From Clostridia bacterium (lineage in GTDB: Bacteria; Bacillota; Clostridia; Christensenellales; UBA1242), in the NCBI GenBank assembly GCA_017621525.1, contig JAGASX010000014.1, forward strand, positions 13,232-77,231: a stretch of DNA of 64,000 nucleotides, read 5' to 3'. The notes under the pieces are model-generated. The model made no database searches. It was not told where the DNA came from and saw only the letters and a program-made list of their open reading frames with translations. How positions within the stretch are numbered: the stretch's first letter is position 1; each line of letters begins with the position of its first letter. Positions 3,935 through 56,325 of the stretch are shown one piece after another. The position numbers and the translations under genes are program-made.

Positions 3935-4246
3935 TGTCGCACCTGCGTTGACAACCAGCCCCCTCGTCGAGGGGGCTGGCAACCTGTATGGGTTGACAGG
4001 GGGACAATTAAGTGAAAAGTGAAGAGTGAAAAGTGAAAAGGTAAGACGCCCCGCTTCGCGCCAAAAGCGACCTGCGCCCGCTTTTGACGCTCCGCTTATA
4101 AGGTTGGATATTATAAAAAACCTATCGAGGAGGCAGACACTCAATTTAGAGTGGGGGTGTTCAAATAAGTGTAAAGTGAAAAGTGAAAAGGTAAGCCTGC
4201 CCCGCTTCGCACGCTCGGCGACAACTCCGCCATCGCTTGGAGACGA
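3935..4246 (+). repeat. Mosaic of GC-rich modules (D fragment, E1, B1, C1, B1', C-like)
   Basis: D fragment GTGTCGCACCTGCGTTGAC 3935-3953; E1 3957-4005; purine heptads B1 4006-4045 and B1' 4167-4195; C1 with stem CAAAAGCG (4062-4069) / CGCTTTTG (4079-4086). Each has homologues at 28.2, 39.4, 42.3 and 55.5 kb. Confidence 0.9.
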
Positions 4247-28140: not shown

Positions 28141-28560
28141 AAGCACCCCCGCGGACTTGCAACCCGCGGGGACGCTTTTTTACGTCGCACCCGCGTTGAC
28201 CTTCGACCAACGCAGACGCTTCCGCCCCGCTCCGCTAAATCAGTTTGAATTAAACAAGCCCCCTCGTTGAGGGGGCTGTCGGCAAAGCCGACTGGGGGAG
28301 TTGAATTAAGTGAAAAGTTAATAGTGAAAAGTGAAAAGGTGTGCCCCGCTCCGCACGCTTGGCGAGTGGTGCCCGCCTTGCACGCTTCGCTAAATAAGAT
28401 TTATTAAACGCCCGTTGTTAGTCATTCGCATACCGCACCGCACTAAAAGCGACAATAATCCTCCTCGCCGAAGGGCTGTCAACCCGCATGGTTTGACTGT
28501 GGGAGTTTACACTTTTGTCGCCTTTCAGACAACTCCCTCCGCCCGGCGTTCAACATAGAT
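28141..28560 (+). repeat. Mosaic of GC-rich modules downstream of rplS (F1, D2, E2, B2, C-like and further GC-rich hairpins)
   Basis: F1 stem CCCCGCGG (28147-28154), loop ACTTGCAAC, stem CCGCGGGG (28164-28171) plus T-run. D2 stem 28191-28198 / 28208-28215. E2 28256-28300. B2 28301-28343. Confidence 0.9.
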
Positions 28561-38889: not shown

Positions 38890-38928
38890 AACGACCTCCC
38901 TTATAGAGGGAGAATACCACTTTATTTC

Positions 38929-38979
38929 GCCTTCCCCTTTGGCCGTAGGAAGGTGGCTCGAAGAGCCGGAAGAGGCTCA
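38929..38979 (+). repeat. Type-A two-hairpin module, copy A1
   Basis: GCCTTCCCCTTTGGCCGTAGGAAGGTG-GCTCGAAGAGC-CGGAAGAGGCTCA. Confidence 0.95.
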
Positions 38980-39062
38980 TTGTGGAACAAACAAAATTGA
39001 AGATTTAAAAAATCTTAACGATAGTCGTCCAGCGTAAGGCTGGCGGAAGAAGGATTTTTTAT
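38980..39062 (+). promoter_or_regulatory. Module G copy 1: portable 5' UTR ending in an SD and ATG
   Basis: TTGTGGAACAAACAAAA...CTTAACGATAGTCGTCCAGCGTAAGGCTGGCGGAAGAAGGA is homologous to 42569-42649. The ATG positions coincide (39063 here, 42650 there). Confidence 0.75.
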
Positions 39063-39116
39063 ATGCATATTTTCACCCTTTTTGCAGATAATATTGGCAA
39101 GGAGGGGAAAACATGA
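39063..39116 (+). CDS. Possible 17-codon upstream ORF (MHIFTLFADNIGKEGKT) coupled by ATGA to the next gene
   Basis: SD AAGGA lies 8-9 nt upstream. The stop TGA (39114-39116) overlaps ATG 39113. Confidence 0.3.
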   Translation: MHIFTLFADNIGKEGKT

Positions 39117-39271
39117 AAGAATTTACAATGATTTTGGGCTTCGGCATGGGGCTTGTTGCTGGCGCACTTTTATATAAACACTCCAAAGATGCCAAAACTG
39201 TTGTCGACAAGGGCGAAAAAGCAGTTAAAGAAGAAGTCAAAAAAATGGAAAATAAAACCAAGAAAAATTAA
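39113..39271 (+). CDS. Small (52 aa) YtxH-like membrane protein
   Basis: Not in the ORF track (under 60 aa). GGAGGGG lies 5 nt before the ATG. MKEFTMILGFGMGLVAGALLYKHSKDAKTVVDKGEKAVKEEVKKMENKTKKN is one TM helix plus a Lys/Glu amphipathic tail. A terminator follows. Confidence 0.55.
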   Translation: MKEFTMILGFGMGLVAGALLYKHSKDAKTVVDKGEKAVKEEVKKMENKTKKN

Positions 39272-39282
39272 ATGTACATATT

Positions 39283-39347
39283 AAGCCTTCCCTTGGGGGA
39301 AGGTGGCTCGAAGAGCCGGAAGAGGGATAATACGCCCTCTTTTTTTG
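39283..39347 (+). repeat. Type-A module copy A5 whose trailer doubles as an intrinsic terminator stem
   Basis: AAGCCTTCCCTTGGGGGAAGGTG-GCTCGAAGAGC-CGGAAGAGGG, then AGAGGG-ataatacg-CCCTCT plus T7 (39320-39347). Confidence 0.9.
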
Positions 39348-39600
39348 TCGCACCTGCGTTGACCTTGCGACCAACGCAGACGCTCCCGCCCCGCCAGCCC
39401 GCTCCGCTTATAAGGTTGAAATAAAAAAATACAAGTGTTTGTCGACAAATTTGATTATGTAGTTGAATTAAGTAAAAAGTGATAAGTGAAAAAGGTAACT
39501 CCGCCCCGCTTCGCACCAAAAGCGACCTACGCCCGCTTTTGACGCTCCGCTAAATAGGCGTCGCACGCTTGGCGACCAACGTCCGCCTCGCCCGCCCCAA
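39348..39600 (+). repeat. Mosaic D3 - B3 - C3 - GC-rich tail
   Basis: D3 has stem CTGCGTTG (39354-39361) / CAACGCAG (39372-39379), with GTCGCA/TGCGAC interleaved. B3 39463-39499. C3 stem 39517-39524 / 39534-39541. Confidence 0.9.
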
Positions 39601-39679: not shown

Positions 39680-39752
39680 AAGCCTTCCCCGCACGCGGGG
39701 AAGGTGGCTCGAAGAGCCAGAAGGGGGAAACCTCCATCTTTGAGGGAGGTGG
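39680..39752 (+). repeat. Type-A module copy A6 plus CCTCC/GGGAGG hairpin inside the 5' leader of the LRR gene
   Basis: AAGCCTTCCCCGCACGCGGGGAAGGTG-GCTCGAAGAGC-CAGAAGGGGG (39680-39727), then CCTCC-atctttga-GGGAGG. The gene's SD GGAAGGAG lies at about 39770-39777. Confidence 0.9.
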
Positions 39753-39785
39753 CAAGGCGTATGCTTTGACGGAAGGAGTTAATAT

Positions 39786-41579
39786 ATGAAACTTAAAACC
39801 AAATTATGTTCAACAATTGTTATGTTCTGCCTCACCATTGTTACACTTATGGTGGGTGTTTGGGCTGTAAAAAGTGCAAACGTAAACATTGGCGGTACAC
39901 TTTCCTTTGTCGCACAAGGTATAGAGGCAACAATTTCCAAAGGCACCATGTCAAACGGCACTTGGCAAACCGCCTCCCACGCAACAACCAAACTTAAACA
40001 AATTGAAATCACAAAAGCAGACACAACCTCAACCCTTTCAAGTAAATTCTCTTCTTGGTCTGGCATAAACCTCAACTTCAATGAAAATGGGGACGATATA
40101 ACAATTTCTTTCTCAATCACAAACAACTCTGATACAAACTCCATTGCGGTGGACGTTTCAACCAGTTACGCATCAGCAACCAACTGCACAATCGCAATAG
40201 ACACCTCTTCCGCAAGCATAGAGCCTAATAAAACCCAAAACTTCACCCTCACTATGAAAATAACCGATAAAGACATCAACGCATCTATGACCAACTTCAC
40301 CGTAATTTTCAATATGCAACTTGTTCAACCTGCACCACCTGTTGATGCCGAAGATGTTTCCTACCTTACTTTCTCTTATGACGACACAACAATGACTGCA
40401 AGTGTAACTGACTGTGATACATCTATTGCGGAAGCGATAATTCCGGAAAGAGTATTATATAGTGATGCAGTTTATGAAACAGTAAGCATAGGAATCCAAG
40501 CCTTCTATAAATGCACAGGCCTTACCTCAATCACAATCCCGGATAGTGTTACAAGTATAGGAAATAATGCCTTCCTAGATTGCACAGGCCTTACAAGTAT
40601 AAGCGTAGACAGTGAAAATAGTGTATATGACAGCAGAAACAATTGCAATGCAATTATTGAAACGGCAACTAATACTCTTATTCAAGGCTGTAAAAATTCA
40701 ACAATTCCCGACAGTGTAACAAGTATAGGTGAGAGTGCCTTTAATGATTGCACAGGTCTTACCTCAATCACAATACCAAATAGTGTAACAAGTATAGGAG
40801 ATTATGCCTTCACTAGATGCACAGGTCTTACCTCAATTACTATCCCCGATAGCGTAACAAGTATAGGAAATAATGCCTTCTTGTTTTGCGCCGGACTTGC
40901 AAGTGTAACAATTGGCAATGGCGTAACAAGTATGGGTAATGCTGCTTTCCAAGAGTGCTCACAGCTTACTTCAATCACAATACCAAACAGTGTAATAAGT
41001 ATAGGAATTAATGCCTTCTCTGGTTGCACGGGGCTTACAAGCATAAGTGTAGATAGTGGGAATAGTGTATATGACAGCAGAAATAATTGCAATGCAATTA
41101 TAGAAACGTCAACTAATACTCTTATCAAAGGTTCTAACAATTCAACAATTCCTAATACTGTAACAAGTATAGGAGATTCTGCCTTCGATGGTTGCACAGG
41201 GCTTACCTCAATCACAATTCCAGATAGCGTAACAAGTATAGGCGAGTCTGCCTTCCGTGATTGCACAGGACTTACCTCAATTACAATCCCAGATAGCGTA
41301 ACAAGTATAGGAGGTTATGCCTTCTCTGGTTGCACAGGACTTACAAATGTAACAATAGGCAGTGGTGTAACAAGTATAGGAGGTTATGCCTTCTCTGGTT
41401 GCACAAACCTTGCCGAAGTGAATGTAAAAGCAACATCTGTGCCAAATGGGGGGAATAATATGTTCTATAATTGCTCTTCATCGCTTGTGATATATGTACC
41501 AACAGCAAGTGTAAGTGCCTACAAAGCGGCAACATATTGGAAAAATTATTCAAGAAAAATTCAAGGTAAAAGTTTTTAA
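39786..41579 (+). CDS. BspA-type leucine-rich-repeat surface protein with an N-terminal SipW-style signal peptide and TasA-like module
   Basis: N-terminus MKLKTKLCSTIVMFCLTIVTLMVGVWAVKSANVNIGGTLSFVAQ parallels the two small proteins at 56898 and 57622. About 14 repeats of TSITIPDSVTSIG..AF..CTGL. C-terminus IYVPTASVSAYKAA.YWKNY. Confidence 0.88.
   Translation: MKLKTKLCSTIVMFCLTIVTLMVGVWAVKSANVNIGGTLSFVAQGIEATISKGTMSNGTWQTASHATTKLKQIEITKADTTSTLSSKFSSWSGINLNFNENGDDITISFSITNNSDTNSIAVDVSTSYASATNCTIAIDTSSASIEPNKTQNFTLTMKITDKDINASMTNFTVIFNMQLVQPAPPVDAEDVSYLTFSYDDTTMTASVTDCDTSIAEAIIPERVLYSDAVYETVSIGIQAFYKCTGLTSITIPDSVTSIGNNAFLDCTGLTSISVDSENSVYDSRNNCNAIIETATNTLIQGCKNSTIPDSVTSIGESAFNDCTGLTSITIPNSVTSIGDYAFTRCTGLTSITIPDSVTSIGNNAFLFCAGLASVTIGNGVTSMGNAAFQECSQLTSITIPNSVISIGINAFSGCTGLTSISVDSGNSVYDSRNNCNAIIETSTNTLIKGSNNSTIPNTVTSIGDSAFDGCTGLTSITIPDSVTSIGESAFRDCTGLTSITIPDSVTSIGGYAFSGCTGLTNVTIGSGVTSIGGYAFSGCTNLAEVNVKATSVPNGGNNMFYNCSSSLVIYVPTASVSAYKAATYWKNYSRKIQGKSF
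40470..41420 (+). repeat. Intragenic tandem LRR-coding repeats (about 69-bp / 23-codon units, plus one roughly 140-bp duplication)
   Basis: Recurrent ACAAGTATAGG...GCCTTC...TGCACAGG(C/T)CTTACCTCAATCACAAT(A/C)CC units. SISVDSENSVYDSRNNCNAIIETATNTLIQG (about 40.60 kb) is duplicated as SISVDSGNSVYDSRNNCNAIIETSTNTLIKG (about 41.04 kb). Confidence 0.9.
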
Positions 41580-41616: not shown

Positions 41617-41787
41617 TGAGCCTCTTCCGCCAACCTGGGGAGGCACCAAACAAGTTTAGCGCGGGCACGGCAGAGATAAACTCGTGCCTAACCGCTACTT
41701 GTTCGGTTCCCCGTCCCAATCTCCCTCCCTCATAAGGACGCACTTACGTGCGATTGACTTGCACCTTCCCCGGTTTCGGGGAAGGCA
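41617..41787 (-). repeat. Type-A module copy A13 (inverted) with a roughly 125-nt insertion (module H2) at the hairpin-2 position
   Basis: On the minus strand it reads AAGCCTTCCCCGAAACCGGGGAAGGTG-[insert]-GCGGAAGAGGCTCA. Insert 41636-41730 is homologous to 900-1000 (CGCGGGCACG...CTAACCGCTA...TCGGTT.CCC..CCCAAT..CCCT). Confidence 0.85.
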
Positions 41788-41814
41788 AGAACCTAAGGAA
41801 GATTTTTTATAATA

Positions 41815-42295: not shown

Positions 42296-42568
42296 AAGCC
42301 TTCCCTTGGGGGAAGGTGTCGCCTTGGCGACGGAAGAGGGACAACTTTAAGTGAAGAGTGAAAAGTGAAGAGTGAAAAGGTGAGCACGCTCCGCTAAACA
42401 AGTTAAGCCTTCCCCTTTGGCCGTAGGAAGGTGCCCGCAGGGCGGAAGAGGCTCATACAAAAGCCTTCCCTTGGGGGAAGGTGTCGCCTTGGCGACGGAA
42501 GAGGGACAACTTCAAGTGAAGAGTGAAAAGTGAAAAGGTAAGTCCGTTGGACTTGCGGAAGAGGCTCA
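42296..42568 (+). repeat. Array A2-B4-(C-like)-A3-A4-B5 of GC-rich modules
   Basis: A2 42296-42340 and A4 42461-42505 are identical (hairpin 2 TCGCC-tt-GGCGA). A3 42405-42455 is identical to A7 at 55579. B4 42341-42384. B5 42506-42542. The 9-nt CGGAAGAGG is duplicated at 42496-42504 and 42556-42564. Confidence 0.95.
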
Positions 42569-42649
42569 TGGTGGAACAAATAAAAATAGAAAATTTAGAA
42601 AAGACTAACGATAGTCGCCCAGCGTAAGGCTGGTAAGAAGGAAATATTT
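42569..42649 (+). promoter_or_regulatory. Module G copy 2: 5' UTR/SD immediately upstream of the HEPN-CBS gene
   Basis: TGGTGGAACAAATAAAA...GACTAACGATAGTCGCCCAGCGTAAGGCTGGTAAGAAGGAAATATTT then ATG. Homologous to 38980-39062. Confidence 0.75.
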
Positions 42650-43381
42650 ATGGCAGACAAAACACAAAAAACAAATTCAAAAAGATTTTTGGACGCATAC
42701 AACAGCATTGACTATGCACTTAAAACAAGGTATGGCTTAAACAGAGCTATGGGCTTTTCTGACCTTATCCGCAAAAGCGTTGTCAACAATTACGTAGTGC
42801 GTAAATATGAAGATGACCTTATCGATTTTGGCAGACTTCGCAATGCCATTGTGCATAACAGCAATGAAAATTTTGTAATTGCCGAGCCTCATGATGAGGT
42901 TGTTGCCCAAATAGAGCACATTGAAAAACTGCTTACCACTCCACCAAAGGTGTTGGATACTGTTGGACAACGCGATGTTCTCACTTCACAGGCAGGCAAA
43001 AGCATGAGGGAAATTATCACCCTTATGTCATCATCAAATTACAGCAACATTCCAATTTACCGTGGGCAAGACCTTTTGGGCATTGCCAATGGTCAAAAAA
43101 TTATCAACTCTTTTGGTCAATATCTGCTTGCAGGGGGCAAAGCCGATGTTTTTCTTGACCATGTGCAAATTGAAGATATGCTTTCTTCCCTTGCCAACAG
43201 CATATATTATGTTGTAAAGCGTGCCGACTGCACAATTGAAGAGGCGCTTAATGAATTTAACAACAACCACAAACTTCTTGCCATACTTTTCACCAAAAAC
43301 GGCACTTCAAATGAATTGCCTGTGGGGATTATGACAGGTGCAAACTTTGTTGACGCACAAAATGTGCTTGAAAACTATTAA
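42650..43381 (+). CDS. HEPN-like (RNxxxH) domain fused to a CBS pair
   Basis: The N-terminal about 95 aa are helical with FGRLRNAIVHN (the R-N-x3-H HEPN signature). The C-terminus has two CBS motifs (MREIITLMSSSNYSNIPIYRGQDLLGIANGQKII; IEEALNEFNNNHKLLAILFTKNGTSNELPVGIMTGANFV). Confidence 0.7.
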   Translation: MADKTQKTNSKRFLDAYNSIDYALKTRYGLNRAMGFSDLIRKSVVNNYVVRKYEDDLIDFGRLRNAIVHNSNENFVIAEPHDEVVAQIEHIEKLLTTPPKVLDTVGQRDVLTSQAGKSMREIITLMSSSNYSNIPIYRGQDLLGIANGQKIINSFGQYLLAGGKADVFLDHVQIEDMLSSLANSIYYVVKRADCTIEEALNEFNNNHKLLAILFTKNGTSNELPVGIMTGANFVDAQNVLENY

Positions 43382-48479: not shown

Positions 48480-48528
48480 AAGATAAAATGCGATATTTTT
48501 TCGCATTTTTTAAAATATAAGGAGCGTT

Positions 48529-55402: not shown

Positions 55403-55407
55403 ATAAA

Positions 55408-55560
55408 AGCACCCCTGTCGACCGCTGACCGACAGGGACGCTTTTTTTTGTGGAAGTGGGACGAAACACCGCCGACGACTTGCAACCGTCGGCGACGTTT
55501 TTTTTGTGTCGCCCGCTCGGCGACCGCTGACCGCCTCGCCCGCTCCGCTTATAAGGTTGG
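55408..55560 (+). repeat. Cluster of three GC hairpins with conserved 9-nt loops (F0, F2, h9) plus a C-module tail
   Basis: F0: CCCTGTCG (55413-55420) - ACCGCTGAC - CGACAGGG (55430-55437) plus T8. F2: CGCCGACG (55470-55477) - ACTTGCAAC - CGTCGGCG (55487-55494) plus T8. h9: GGCG (55519-55522) - ACCGCTGAC - CGCC (55532-55535). Tail CGCTCCGCTTATAAGGTTGGA as at 4088 and 39409. Confidence 0.9.
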
Positions 55561-55578
55561 AAATAAAAAAAACACTAA

Positions 55579-55777
55579 AAGCCTTCCCCTTTGGCCGTAG
55601 GAAGGTGCCCGCAGGGCGGAAGAGGCTCAATTTTTGAAAACAAAAACAAATCAAGCCTTCCCCTTTAGCCGTAGGAAGGTGTCGCGTAGCGACGGAAGAG
55701 GCTCAATTATTTAAAACAAAAACAAATCAAGCCTTCCCCGAAACCGGGGAAGGTGCCCGAAGGGCGGAAGAGGCTCA
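55579..55777 (+). repeat. Tandem triplet of type-A modules (A7, A8, A9) with conserved 23-nt A-rich linkers
   Basis: A7 55579-55629 (hairpin 2 GCCC-gca-GGGC). A8 55653-55705 (TCGC-gta-GCGA). A9 55729-55777 (GCCC-gaa-GGGC). Linkers are ATTTTTGAAAACAAAAACAAATC and ATTATTTAAAACAAAAACAAATC. Confidence 0.97.
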
Positions 55778-55784
55778 AAAAAAC

Positions 55785-55813
55785 TTGCAATTTAATTTAG
55801 AATTATATAAAAT
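55785..55813 (+). promoter_or_regulatory. Promoter of the DUF559 gene. Geometry implies a leaderless or near-leaderless mRNA.
   Basis: TTGCAA (55785-55790), 17 nt, TAAAAT (55808-55813). The ATG at 55820 is only 6 nt downstream and has no SD. Confidence 0.5.
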
Positions 55814-55819
55814 AAAGTT

Positions 55820-56173
55820 ATGAAAACGCCGAATAAAAAACTTACGCCAAATGCTCAAATATTGCGGAAAAATATGACAAAAGAAGAAAGACATTTATGG
55901 TATGATTTTTTGTCAACTTATCCTATACAATTTAAAAGACAAAAGGTTGTAGGCAGGTATATTGCAGATTTCTTTTGCCCGAAAGCCAAAATTATAATTG
56001 AAATTGACGGCTCTCAACATTTTAGTGAAGATGGATTGCAGTATGATAAAGAGAGAACGGACTTTCTTAATAAATTTGGAATTATGGTTATAAGATTAAC
56101 AAATATTGATATAAATCAAAGGTTTAGGTCATCATGTGAATTTATTGATTTAAAAGTTAAAGAGAGGTTATGA
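55820..56173 (+). CDS. DUF559 (Vsr-like/PD-(D/E)xK fold) endonuclease-domain protein
   Basis: LTPNAQILRKNMTKEERHLWYDFL...FKRQKVVGRYIADFFCPKAKIIIEIDGSQH...DKERTDFLNKFGIMVIRLTN is the typical DUF559 layout. It is visibly more AT-rich, with TTA/ATA/AGA codons that are uncommon in neighbouring genes. Confidence 0.85.
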   Translation: MKTPNKKLTPNAQILRKNMTKEERHLWYDFLSTYPIQFKRQKVVGRYIADFFCPKAKIIIEIDGSQHFSEDGLQYDKERTDFLNKFGIMVIRLTNIDINQRFRSSCEFIDLKVKERL

Positions 56174-56230
56174 GCCTCTTTCGTCATTCGCTAACGCTCA
56201 TGCCACCTTCCCCGGTTTCGGGGAAGGCTT
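56171..56230 (-). repeat. Type-A module copy A10, inverted. It begins at the DUF559 stop codon.
   Basis: TGAGCCTCTTTCGTCATTCGCTAACGCTCATGCCACCTTCCCCGGTTTCGGGGAAGGCTT is the reverse complement of AAGCCTTCCCCGAAACCGGGGAAGGTG-[21 nt]-GAAAGAGGCTCA. Hairpin 1 is identical to A9. Confidence 0.93.
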
Positions 56231-56325
56231 TTTATTGAAATCCTAAACCTTATCATGCTTCCTGCGAGCCCGCGGGGAGTGTCGCCAAAGGCGACGAGAG
56301 GTGTCATCAAAATTCCTTACATATT

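Follow-up and report, generated by a model that had tools for sequence, protein, structure and literature searches.

In the 64,000-nt stretch of clostridial DNA that was analysed (the window), three plus-strand copies of a short GC-rich repeat are followed by an open reading frame (ORF) for a DUF559 endonuclease, and then by one minus-strand copy overlapping its stop codon (Table 1). This bracketing of the gene, which is absent from the sequence-only reading of the same DNA, represents the sole convergent (inverted) repeat pair of the window. The ORF 55820-56173 belongs to PF04480 (E 1.1e-26; 93.2 bits, the gathering cut-off being 20.6). None of the 26 invariant positions of a nine-sequence alignment (A1) is changed in it, and the invariant residues D50, E61, D63, Q66, H67 and D76 are kept. 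The encoded protein matches PDB 3HRL, a structural-genomics DUF559 protein (E 6e-28), and 3R3P, the catalytic domain of I-Bth0305I (E 1e-3), both of the same Vsr/DUF559 clan as the window nuclease. No measured activity of any DUF559 protein was found in the literature searched. An exact look-up of the protein returned two contigs only, counted as one place and probably the window's own scaffold. L033, L009 (Selenomonas caprae), L111 and L062 share this layout of copies, DUF559 gene and inverted copy. Where the unit is compact, 4-8 nt separate the upstream tail from the ATG, and the inverted arm overlaps the stop codon. Read on the plus strand, the inverted copy of the window shows a hairpin followed by CTTTTTATTG and is terminator-like.

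Table 1. Repeat units and the nuclease gene in the window (positions are those of the window)
Feature	Position	Strand	Details
E-family unit	3957..4005	+	GCCCCCT(C) / (G)AGGGGGC-TG / mini-hairpin / AGGGGGA
E-family unit	28256..28300	+	GCCCCCTC / GAGGGGGC-TG / TCGGCAAAGCCGAC / TGGGGGAG
Copy 3' of NifU-like ORF	38927..38979	+	
Copy 3' of small ORF 39113-39271	39283..39327	+	
Copy with tail AGAAGGGG	39680..39728	+	tail position 6 obeys the mirror rule in this copy
Degenerate triplex-type unit of another stem family	39731..39778	+	CCTCCATC / GAGGGAGG-TG / mini-hairpin / GGAAGGAG; compared with L147/L148
Orphan tail GGAAGAGGCTCA	41617..41628	-	
Copy 3' of SRP RNA	41722..41788	-	long linker, divergent tail
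Copy with mini-hairpin TCGCCTTGGCGAC	42296..42341	+	
Copy identical to 55579-55627	42405..42455	+	
Copy 97% identical to 42296	42461..42506	+	identity includes the GTGAAAAG module 3' of the copy
Partial unit	42540..42567	+	mini-hairpin and tail GGAAGAGGCTCA, without hairpin 1
Triplet copy 1	55579..55629	+	74-nt period; hairpin 1 shortened by CCGTA loop insertion; mini-hairpin CCCGCAGGGC; tail GGAAGAGG(CTCA)
Triplet copy 2	55653..55705	+	hairpin-1 variant as in copy 1; mini-hairpin TCGCGTAGCGAC
Triplet copy 3	55729..55777	+	canonical: G-CCTTCCCC / GAAACC / GGGGAAGG-TG / CCCGAAGGGC / GGAAGAGG; upstream arm of the DUF559-flanking pair
Promoter-like site TTGCAA-17-TAAAAT	55785..55813	+	ends 6 nt before the DUF559 ATG; consensus match only
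DUF559 (YcjD-like, Vsr-clan PD-(D/E)XK) endonuclease gene	55820..56173	+	117 aa, intact
Inverted copy, downstream arm of the DUF559 pair	56173..56230	-	tail overlaps the DUF559 stop codon
Copy with extra TG, mini-hairpin and GGAAGAGG module	59037..59106	+	copy proper 59037-59085
Canonical copy between convergent genes	59125..59173	+	

The 13 copies of this type-A element listed in the sequence-only reading were all recovered. Specifically, the pattern GCCTTCC-N2-14-GGAAGGTG gave 13 matches in the window, 11 on the plus and 2 on the minus strand, and none in any of 100 dinucleotide shuffles of the window; a covariance model built solely from 21 copies in other genomes also found all 13 (E 2e-13 to 5e-5). 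Every hairpin-2 and loop-1 variant that had been listed occurs among the copies, and both copies of the sister element E are present. Some boundaries were redrawn: the minus-strand stretch 41617-41787, taken as a single copy, is better described as one copy plus an orphan tail, and only the first part of 59037-59106 is a copy, the remainder being a second module. The copies are nearly all intergenic, as had been claimed, the exception being c56171-56230, which overlaps the DUF559 stop codon by 3 nt. Triplet copy 1 (55579-55627) is 100% identical to 42405-42453, and the Shine-Dalgarno-like tail of the unit at 39731 lies 7 nt 5' of the ATG of a BspA-LRR ORF (39786-41579). All together, the window holds three stem families but one DUF559 gene.

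On one strand, a unit reads 5' G, pyrimidine arm CCTTCCCC, short loop, purine arm GGGGAAGG, TG, mini-hairpin and purine tail GGAAGAGG. The T of the TG faces the 5' G, giving a G.T mispair at the foot of hairpin 1, and the mini-hairpin (hairpin 2) is very stable, with a GNA or GNRA loop and a free, hypervariable sequence. Covariation was scored on 141 distinct copies from about 100 sources, aligned by fitting to the model. Hairpin 1 is paired at 99.7%, with changes on both sides in 4 of 9 pairs, and the G.T foot (G.U in RNA) is conserved in 134/141 copies. Hairpin 2 is paired at 87.8%, with both-side changes in 6 of 7 pairs, in support of the earlier claim of a structured multi-copy element whose second hairpin keeps its pairing despite sequence change. 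The covariation score of this model-fitted alignment was 0.248, compared to 0.070 in shuffles (none of 500 reached the observed value) and at most 0.043 with slid partners. When folded as DNA, canonical copies form the two hairpins at -14.8 to -16.9 kcal/mol (z -3.2 to -5.0), and the E unit 28256-28300 has a z of -5.0. Triplet copies 1 and 2 carry a 5-nt insertion in hairpin 1, and DNA folding favours an alternative fold for them, with weak z values of -0.2 and -2.1. In the ...GGCTCA subfamily of the source genome, 5' AGCCT can pair with 3' AGGCT, and this is the minimum-energy fold of the two weakened copies. The tail stays unpaired in the Watson-Crick folds of the units, the folding tools used being limited to Watson-Crick pairs.

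The tail had been regarded as a passive trailer. Our data indicate instead that it mirrors the hairpin-1 purine arm and that the two change together, always in one register, following the triplex code of the purine motif: G.GC, either A.AT or T.AT, and T facing C-G inversions. Specifically, among the 141 copies, purine-arm column 56 and tail column 164 show G/G in 136 and C/T in 5, while columns 54 and 166 show A/A in 120, G/G in 19 and A/T in 2. The fit to the triple code is 87.7% in register as compared to 23-56% in shifted registers, and the mutual information lies on the mirror diagonal. In the A family, third-strand triads fit at 7 of 8 positions, and at tail position 6 a conserved A faces a G-C pair in 134/141 copies, which makes a mismatched triplet; in the E unit 28256..28300 the mirror rule holds at 8 of 8 positions, with T opposite a C-G inversion. 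An unbiased scan of pyrimidine/purine hairpins found a downstream mirror match of at least 7/8 in 229/502 cases, compared to 70/502 upstream and 66/502 for direct repeats as controls, and the rule was obeyed by many distinct stem families. Of 359 distinct units from 41 stem families, 297 have a G before the pyrimidine arm, 284 have a linker that opens with TG, and 292 have a linker with a mini-hairpin.

Watson-Crick folding of RNA cannot account for this mirror covariation, whereas a purine-motif third strand can. According to a report cited in PMC4666352 (Semerad & Maher 1994), purine-motif triplexes do not form in RNA, which points to a feature of the DNA. Most likely, therefore, the type-A element is an intrastrand-triplex repeat (class II purine motif) at the level of DNA, which would adopt the triplex in the cell. 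A G-quadruplex was set aside: a C-rich arm on the same strand competes, and NMR excluded this structure for TMECO (Holder et al., PMC4666352). As a general rule, riboswitch-like pairing of the tail with the 5' arm also failed, since it needs different registers in the T and C subfamilies and breaks down in the E family; the mirror, in contrast, keeps one register throughout; it is possible as a local alternative in the ...GGCTCA subfamily. In agreement with the earlier statement that the element belongs to no named RNA family, Rfam gave no match at gathering thresholds over the whole window, and only chance-level matches at E up to 10 on two repeat-rich regions.

Catalogues of BoxC/PIT/TM repeats go back to the 1990s; to our knowledge, no origin, partner protein or function has been assigned to them. 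Nor do we know of a role assigned to DUF559, a nuclease-fold family that is very widespread. Our units share with BoxC/PIT/TMECO (Hoyne & Maher 2000, 2002; Holder et al. 2015, PMC4666352) the order of pyrimidine arm, loop, purine arm, loop and mirror purine/T third strand, the triad code with one mismatched triplet commonly tolerated, and an intergenic, multi-copy distribution with variable loops, conserved stems and inverted pairs of two arm types. The complete novelty claimed in the sequence-only reading, which by its own terms ended with a match to a described repeat, thus falls, the architecture being that of the class II intrastrand triplex motifs. In all canonical copies the blocks follow the pyrimidine / purine / reverse-Hoogsteen (G/A/T) order, blocks 1 and 2 are Watson-Crick complementary (hairpin 1), and the third block agrees, at the fits given above for the A family and the E copy 28256, with the antiparallel triads G.GC, A.AT and T.AT, for which at most one mismatch is allowed in stems of at least 7 (PMC4666352). 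Loops are limited to 1-6 nt in ITxF and to 0-10 nt in Hoyne (Hoyne 2000; Holder 2015, PMC4666352). Here, loop 1 usually has 3-6 nt (12 in four window copies) and loop 2 has 12-24 nt with a hairpin of its own, so that the operational definition does not cover the unit, which is treated here as a variant. Under the ITxF limit of 6 nt, units with a mini-hairpin would go unreported by existing triplex finders, and the abundance of such motifs in Firmicutes is therefore probably underestimated.

The element is not a member of the TMECO sequence family, as it does not show the consensus CCCTCNCCC-N3-6-GGGNGAGGG-N3-GGGNGAGGG. The stem is CCTTCCCC here and CCCTCNCCC in TMECO, loop 2 is TG plus a 10-22-nt hypervariable mini-hairpin instead of 3 nt, and the hosts are low-GC Clostridia and Negativicutes. 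For the described motifs, the isolated strand forms the triplex by CD and NMR, DMS footprinting in E. coli detected no triplex in vivo, PIT elements had no promoter, terminator or conjugation effect, and each inverted pair is made up of one type A and one type B (PMC4666352).

In the TMECO work no associated protein was reported and the motif was not found with mobile elements (PMC4666352); in contrast, a DUF559 gene is a consistent neighbour of the repeats described here. This association was assayed on 80 metagenomic loci picked by DUF559 protein similarity alone, blind to the repeat; several are near-duplicates, leaving fewer independent cases, and more than 10 stem families remain. Motif density was 4.58 per kb within 150 nt of the gene and 0.195 per kb beyond 300 nt, a 23-fold difference, and the motifs usually formed an inverted pair with matched stems. 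At least one unit in the expected orientation was present in 41 of 73 loci and both in 20 of 73, often as the sole two units in 4.3 kb, while by the strict finder about 40% of the loci had no adjacent unit. The two arms around a DUF559 gene share their stem, and DUF559 proteins with the same stem core are more alike than others (59.7% vs 51.8% identity, not reached in any of 2000 permutations). Conversely, loci selected by the element have 394 ORFs that lie at most 120 nt from a unit, and among these DUF559 alone recurs widely (7 loci, the next family 3), and for this reason a REP/RAYT or other transposase was rejected as the partner.

The element is widespread in related gut and rumen Clostridia and occurs also in Negativicutes. 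Units that are 72-89% identical sit in unrelated flanks. In the related genomes, neighbouring units form 50 convergent pairs, whose spacings peak at 45-62 nt, and between the same two arms there is in some cases a linker of about 50 nt and in others a DUF559 ORF. Repeats also flank DUF559 in Deinococcus, cyanobacteria and Proteobacteria, the cases being Deinococcus (where the pair orientation is reversed), Pseudanabaena, Sphingomonas, Azospirillum, Sinorhizobium, Photobacterium and Neisseria. Twenty-four plasmid records with a relative served as cross-phylum test cases and not as evidence of plasmid carriage, several being mislabelled chromosomes. E. coli K-12 ycjD is a partial case: a TMECO lies about 170 nt downstream and a degenerate inverted copy was read by eye at the stop codon, the automated motif finder having returned no unit anywhere in the locus. 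We found no paper linking a DUF559 nuclease with these repeats in the literature searched, which covered few subscription journals, so that absence is not proof. The nearest published result is a statistic on predicted inversion targets, that is, genes flanked by inverted repeats, among which DUF559 genes are 14-fold enriched (PMC9881135).

In conclusion, the block architecture, covariation of the hairpins and of the mirror tail, a tight cross-phylum association with DUF559, matching stems and the same unit in unrelated genomic contexts have all been observed. We propose, with a probability of about 60%, that the copies are non-autonomous members of a selfish triplex-repeat unit whose DUF559 nuclease recognises the folded repeat. 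Against this weigh the mismatched triplet at tail position 6, the negative DMS footprinting and the lack of effect of PIT elements in E. coli, the DUF559 loci with no adjacent unit, the reversed pair of Deinococcus, and the three stem families that share the window with one DUF559 gene. The complete selfish unit would be the inverted repeat pair around the Vsr-fold gene, here 55729-56230. Triplex formation in the cell, nuclease specificity and the mechanism of mobility are what we infer: when the strand becomes single-stranded in replication, repair or extrusion, the third strand may fold back onto hairpin 1, with the mini-hairpin as its turn; the nuclease would recognise this folded repeat, possibly at the conserved G.T foot beside the triplex, and nick it, and the nick could lead to copying by repair or recombination. 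A functional analogue might be the partnership of REP elements with RAYT, or a free-standing homing endonuclease targeting a dispersed repeat.

As in REP/REPIN-RAYT systems and BIMEs, a nuclease gene present in single copy lies between the inverted arms of a short structured repeat that is also dispersed through the genome, doublets combine two arm types (the dispersed inverted doublets being the convergent pairs of the related genomes), and a folded single DNA strand is the presumed recognition form; as in REP/REPIN-RAYT, repeat family and enzyme lineage co-vary. However, the flanked gene is DUF559 (PF04480) and not a RAYT (Y1/HUH, PF01797-type): the enzyme is a PD-(D/E)XK Vsr-fold nuclease, whereas RAYT is an IS200/IS605-like Y1 transposase. 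In addition, the unit has a third-strand block and a mini-hairpin where REP is a simple imperfect palindrome with a GTAG head, and mobility of the unit is putative. We know of no case in which a lone PD-(D/E)XK nuclease is a transposase. In the manner of MITEs, the arms around the DUF559 ORF or the short linker provide terminal inverted repeats in common with a protein-coding element. Neither target-site duplications nor empty and filled alleles were found, the sole orthologous comparison (L024 with window 48480-48528) being too diverged at 80-85% identity. Integron attC sites and IS200/IS605 ends resemble the unit in that structure is conserved above sequence, one strand folds and the central part varies; unlike them, it has no R/L boxes, integrase or TnpA, and has a third-strand mirror block. 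DUF559 and I-Bth0305I both belong to the Vsr/DUF559 clan (PMC3424549), but in contrast to that homing endonuclease the gene here is free-standing rather than intronic, and its product presumably targets a structured repeat in dispersed copies, not an allele that lacks the intron.

The strongest competing explanation, which we consider unlikely, is that the repeats came first, as structural DNA tolerated by or useful to the host (replication or recombination pause sites, insulators or terminators), and that DUF559 does not spread them but is a separate parasite or caretaker, either a homing-type endonuclease landing in repeat pairs or a host nuclease resolving structures. This is compatible with the kinship of DUF559 to a homing endonuclease and with convergent "empty" pairs (45-62-nt linkers) being the commonest arrangement in related genomes, and pairs spaced 354-464 nt carry the DUF559 gene, as homing into a pair predicts. 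Moreover, the inverted unit is terminator-like, tails serve as Shine-Dalgarno-like sequences, and TMECO loci are mostly stable among 56 E. coli strains (PMC4666352). However, this explanation accounts neither for the multiplication of the repeats nor for the conservation of the triplex-forming blocks in every copy, the neighbouring genes show no functional class (here and in PMC4666352), and the tight overlap of gene and arms, like the way stems vary along with protein lineage, is explained at least equally well by one unit whose parts evolve together.

It is less probable still that the units act as RNA, as a small structured RNA, a stabiliser in 5' or 3' untranslated regions, or a switch in which the tail is paired with the 5' arm or free. 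The compensatory changes in the two hairpins would suit such a role, and the G.T foot is a normal G.U wobble in RNA and as such does not exclude it. Likewise, 11 of the 13 window copies are co-oriented with mostly plus-strand genes, a Shine-Dalgarno-like tail stands just before the start codons in DUF559 units and ORF 39786, and AGCCT/AGGCT pairing is available in the ...GGCTCA subfamily. On the other hand, the tail co-varies as mirror and not as complement of the purine arm, the Watson-Crick alternative in the E family is limited to the G5/C5 run while its mirror fit is complete, and Rfam gave no match. In addition, copies occur in both orientations, in convergent pairs, in tandem arrays and between convergent genes, and triplexes of this motif reportedly do not form in RNA. 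Accordingly, of the earlier proposal of selection on structure, in RNA or in single-stranded or cruciform DNA, the conservation of structure stands, while the RNA level has become less likely.

Finally, a standard REP/REPIN or MITE family that relies on a conventional transposase encoded elsewhere (RAYT/IS200-type Y1 or DDE), with mirror tail and DUF559 neighbourhood incidental, would explain units that are short, GC-rich, palindromic, intergenic and multi-copy, with inverted doublets as in REPINs and BIMEs, but is very improbable, because no transposase-like family recurs beside the units in 0.96 Mb of element-selected loci, the GTAG-type head is missing, and the DUF559 enrichment under blind choice and the matched stems cannot be incidental.

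The preferred reading of a selfish triplex-repeat unit can be extended, more tentatively and at somewhat less than even odds, to a single pan-bacterial selfish system, in which DUF559 endonucleases and intrastrand-triplex repeats (BoxC/PIT/TM and the mini-hairpin variant) belong together, the nuclease would read and nick the G.T-foot triplex, and the dispersed repeats would be its non-autonomous progeny. The window offers a clean natural example, with a gene bracketed by its repeats and a dozen dispersed copies nearby, of an association that is general, can be tested blind and joins two open questions, on the repeat and on the nuclease, into one. If true, BoxC would gain its first mechanism and DUF559 its first function, in a REP/RAYT-like partnership with a different enzyme fold and a three-stranded DNA signal. 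A non-B DNA triplex would then act as a recognition signal in biology, for which examples are rare, and a class of mobile or selfish elements would join those that shape the intergenic DNA of gut Clostridia, enterobacteria, cyanobacteria and others.

The 13 copies of the type-A two-hairpin element that the sequence-only reading had placed in this bacterial DNA of about 38% GC were found where expected, the pattern GCCTTCC-N2-14-GGAAGGTG matching 13 times in the window (11 on the plus strand, 2 on the minus strand) and not once in 100 dinucleotide shuffles. Every loop-1 and hairpin-2 variant listed was present, as were both copies of the sister E family. Some boundaries required revision: c41617-41787 is best taken as a copy, at c41722-41788, plus a separate orphan tail; 59037-59106 begins with a copy, after which comes another module of mini-hairpin plus tail; and the copies are nearly all intergenic, the one at c56171-56230 sharing 3 nt with a stop codon. 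In DNA folding, canonical copies adopt the two-hairpin fold (z -3.2 to -5.0), while the first two copies of the tandem triplet (55579-55777) have a weakened hairpin 1 and fold unconvincingly when each is taken alone (z -0.2 and -2.1). Because one loop 1 occurs with several hairpins 2, and the reverse, among the 13 copies, and because 42405-42453 and 55579-55627, 13 kb apart, are 100% identical, the data suggest recombination or gene conversion between copies, not simple descent with decay.

A 24-base gapped pattern retrieved at least 119 stretches from species-representative genomes, the carriers among the matches listed being Oscillospiraceae, Faecousia, Vescimonas, many rumen 'Clostridiales' MAGs and Christensenellales, together with Selenomonas caprae and a Veillonellaceae isolate. 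A covariance model trained on 21 foreign copies from those matches recovered all window copies (E 2e-13 to 5e-5) and gave 255 matches across 100 sources. In 141 distinct aligned copies, hairpin 1 is paired in 99.7% and shows compensatory change in 4 of its 9 pairs; for hairpin 2 the figures are 87.8% and 6 of 7 pairs, most of its unpaired cells coming from one variant that we interpret as a hairpin containing tandem G.A pairs. The covariation score was 0.248 compared to 0.070 in shuffles (0/500 reaching 0.248), and sliding the partners gave no more than 0.043. The alignment behind these scores was fitted to the covariance model and thus biased toward structure. The variability of hairpin 2 holds outside that alignment, since 213 pattern-defined copies carry 141 different hairpin-2 sequences. 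No Rfam family matched the element, either at gathering thresholds on the whole window or in permissive E-value scans on two repeat-rich regions. The factual claims of the earlier reading, including conserved pairing with changed sequence, therefore hold.

That reading had overlooked the behaviour of the tail, which is the hairpin-1 purine arm in reverse order and co-varies with it. Specifically, hairpin-1 arms and tail change jointly between subfamilies at three places (see the table), and in the 141 copies the mirrored columns show perfect or near-perfect co-variation: G/G in 136 and C/T in 5 at one column pair; A/A in 120, G/G in 19 and A/T in 2 at another; A facing A in 124 and A facing T in 17 at a third. 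Mutual information is concentrated on the mirror diagonal, and the code G.GC, A.AT, T.AT, T.CG fits 87.7% in register versus 23-56% when shifted, the sole systematic exception to this triad code being tail position 6, where a G-C pair faces a conserved A. An unbiased scan of every pyrimidine/purine hairpin in the fetched loci found the mirror rule in many unrelated stem families (e.g. CCTCCCTT, CCTCTCCC, CCCCCTCC, GCTCCCCT), with downstream mirror matches in 229/502 compared to 70/502 for the upstream and 66/502 for the direct-repeat control. A mirror relation lies beyond template copying and differs from Watson-Crick pairing; judged from sequence, it is the mark of a purine-motif third strand that runs antiparallel to the hairpin-1 purine arm. 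The frame stays constant over 359 distinct units from 41 stem families: the pyrimidine arm follows a G in 297, the linker begins with TG in 284, which provides a conserved G.T foot, and a mini-hairpin lies inside the linker in 292, usually with C-GNA-G or GNRA loops.

This order of blocks is that of the class II intrastrand triplex motif, described in E. coli first as BoxC, then as PIT elements, then as TMECO (PMC4666352). The element, which the earlier reading had not recognised as any named repeat or RNA family, is a variant of these intrastrand-triplex repeats distinguished by its mini-hairpin; the observation stands and carries more interest than a generic repeat would. TMECO (consensus CCCTCNCCC-N3-6-GGGNGAGGG-N3-GGGNGAGGG) has 23 intergenic copies in K-12, with stems more conserved than loops, one mismatched triplet being common, and five inverted pairs, every one joining a type A and a type B copy (PMC4666352). 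CD and NMR show a stable triplex in the isolated strand; in vivo, DMS detected no triplex, and neither promoter nor terminator activity, nor a link to mobile elements, nor any function except an association with local instability was found, while RNA, on evidence cited there, does not form purine-motif triplexes (PMC4666352). Membership of the TMECO sequence family is ruled out for the window element, whose stem sequence differs and whose loop 2 is structured and 12-24 nt long, compared to N3 in TMECO. Since the published triplex finder takes loops of 1-6 nt only (PMC4666352), such units would escape it.

Features of the window and the sequence blocks of the units
Feature	Position	Strand	Sequence or match
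Unit subfamily 1			GCCTTCC..GGAAGGTG..GGAAGAGG
Unit subfamily 2			GCCCTCC..GGAGGGTG..GGGAGAGG
Unit subfamily 3			GGCTTCC..GGAAGCTG..TGAAGAGG
E family, same pattern	3957-4005, 28256-28300		GCCCCCTC..GAGGGGGC..TGGGGGAG
DUF559 ORF, 117 aa	55820-56173	+	PF04480, E 1e-26
Large SRP RNA	c41856-42121	-	
tRNA-Gly			
C-free module (G, A, T only), six copies	4006-4042, 4163-4199, 28304-28340, 39466-39502, 42345-42381, 42503-42539		AAGTGAAAAGTGAAGAGTGAAAAGTGAAAAGGT
GC-rich module	4047-4103, 28342-28398, 39502-39558, 55520-55577		CGCCCCGCTTCGC..GCGAC..CGCTCCGCT(T/A)A(T/A)A(A/G)G
Two more hairpin families	3937-3955, 28185-28225, 39347-39390; 28141-28181, 55407-55447, 55464-55504		
Leader, ~80 nt	38980-39060, 42570-42650		GGTGGAACAAA..AACGATAGTCGYCCAGCGTAAGGCTGG..GAAGAAGGA
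Small ORF after leader	39113-39271		
CBS-domain ORF after leader	42650-43381		
BspA-type leucine-rich-repeat protein gene	39786-41579		
Its internal DNA repeats, 69-nt period	40500-41473		
Structured GC-rich segment, ~90 nt	c41629-41721	-	GGCACG..CGTGCC, CCGAACAAGT..ACTTGTTTGG
Small ORF, Cys/Gly-rich peptide (read by eye)	~c4520-4712	-	MNFFNNTCGNGFGSCNGGCDCGN...
Non-coding, ~660 nt, 3' of DUF559 unit	56240-56900		
Hairpins therein, x2	56344-56365, 56553-56574		CCGGGGGAATCGCAACCCCCGG
AT-rich unit therein, x2	56425-56462, 56626-56662		
Decayed triplex-type unit	56267-56303		

Other modules lie near the units. The C-free module mostly follows a triplex-type unit by a few bases and has the composition expected of a third strand; no duplex matching it was found. 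The GC-rich module keeps a constant order relative to the others, and jointly the modules form larger BIME-style mosaic arrays in AT-rich intergenic DNA. One of the two further hairpin families is GTCGCACCYGCGTTGACC..CAACGCAGACGC, the other a terminator-like AAGCACCCC..GGGGACGCTTTTTT, in tandem after gene ends. Both leaders begin directly after a ...GGAAGAGGCTCA tail, contain a GNRA-capped hairpin and precede unrelated ORFs; the leader has no Rfam match and may be a cis-regulatory RNA. The structured segment, with nested hairpins, separates copy c41722-41788 from the orphan tail and is situated shortly downstream of the SRP RNA gene. The ribosome-binding site of the BspA-type gene appears to be the tail of a degenerate triplex-type unit, while that of the minus-strand small ORF is AGGAGG. 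Elsewhere, Oscillospiraceae-type composites (L005, L007, L012, L014, L027, L098, L099, L108, L109) have an AT-rich hairpin ahead of each arm, with compensatory changes of its own (e.g. GATAAATTGTTGTTTATC, CCAAATTGGAATTTGG, GACAAATTGCCATTTGTC), and the ~50-nt linker of their convergent arms often carries TTTCGGCGAAA(C/T)GG, which implies a larger composite element of ~240 nt.

The tandem triplet stops 42 nt short of the DUF559 ORF, and an inverted copy, c56173-56230, overlaps its stop codon and on the plus strand looks like a terminator of that gene. The same bracket of plus unit, DUF559 gene and minus unit is repeated in the element-selected loci L033, L009 (Selenomonas caprae), L111 and L062, and in L086 the gene is bracketed by another stem family. 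The element-selected loci contain 394 ORFs no more than 120 nt from a unit, and DUF559 was the sole widely recurring family among them (7 loci, the next family 3). In a blind reverse test on 80 metagenomic loci, picked solely by similarity to a DUF559 alignment, motif density was 4.58 per kb up to 150 nt from the gene versus 0.195 per kb more than 300 nt away; of 73 loci, 41 had one or more units oriented as expected and 20 had both, and at many loci the flanking two were the only units across 4.3 kb. In compact units, the upstream tail (e.g. GGAGGGAT) lies 4-8 nt ahead of the ATG and the stop codon falls inside the inverted arm. The arms flanking one gene share the same stem and differ in the first pair (C... 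tail GG... versus G... tail TG...), a difference that may correspond to the A/B pairing of E. coli. In addition, DUF559 proteins with the same stem core are closer to each other (59.7% versus 51.8% identity, reached in 0/2000 permutations), and one unit occurs in different genomic contexts, units 72-89% identical having unrelated flanks.

DUF559 belongs to the Vsr clan (PMC3424549), and the solved structures closest to the protein are 3HRL (E 6e-28) and the homing endonuclease I-Bth0305I (E 1e-3). The literature searched held no paper tying DUF559 or YcjD to these repeats; in one survey of predicted inversion targets, DUF559 genes were enriched 14-fold (PMC9881135), consistent with flanking inverted repeats. 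The association was also found in Pseudanabaena, Sphingomonas, Azospirillum, Sinorhizobium, Photobacterium and Neisseria gonorrhoeae, and the finder reported no unit at the Picosynechococcus and Thermoactinomyces DUF559 loci. On Deinococcus proteolyticus pDEIPR03 (L203, 490-960), the gene is bracketed by short-linker triplex motifs, embedded on both sides in a longer inverted repeat of ~60 nt, with tails facing away from it; because this bracket runs in the opposite polarity, pair polarity is lineage-specific. In E. coli K-12 a single DUF559 gene, ycjD, was examined; a TMECO copy, one of 23, follows it ~170 nt downstream (chance of a TMECO within 300 bp of one gene ~0.005, a rough estimate), and we read the ycjD stop codon as lying within a degenerate inverted copy, at a locus where the automated finder reported nothing.

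On the most probable reading, repeats and nuclease form a selfish unit. Once the G-rich strand is single-stranded, the hairpin would form and the tail would fold back as a third strand, with the mini-hairpin as the turn; the DUF559 nuclease would recognise this triplex fold, a Vsr-like enzyme meeting a G.T mispair being an attractive, putative detail. Nicking could then lead to copying of the repeat or the whole unit via repair or recombination, and dispersed solo, tandem and paired copies might be non-autonomous offshoots of the unit, much as REPINs derive from RAYT-flanked REPs. Against the selfish-unit reading count a lone PD-(D/E)XK enzyme, to our knowledge not a known transposase; the lack of a unit at about 40% of DUF559 loci with a strict finder; the differing pair orientation between lineages; and the lack of target duplications, looked for at one orthologous site in a strongly diverged relative, at 80-85% identity (across 7.6 kb; a MAG labelled 'uncultured Lachnospiraceae', the nearest among the fetched loci). 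The mismatched tail position 6 and the negative in vivo DMS result in E. coli (PMC4666352) point the same way.

It is plausible, if rather unlikely, that the repeats are primary and DUF559 is their homing parasite or caretaker, which fits the gap between ~50-nt 'empty' and ~400-nt 'filled' pairs. Still less probable is a role of the units as RNA: the G.U foot would suit it, as would SD-like tails and the shared orientation of units and genes, but mirror covariation and mixed orientations would be left unexplained. A conventional REP/RAYT or MITE family is not supported, as no transposase recurs beside units among the 394 ORFs of the element-selected loci.

In conclusion, the main value of the finding is as a lead, namely a general, blind-tested association of intrastrand-triplex repeats with DUF559 nucleases, which makes two long-standing unknowns open to experiment.
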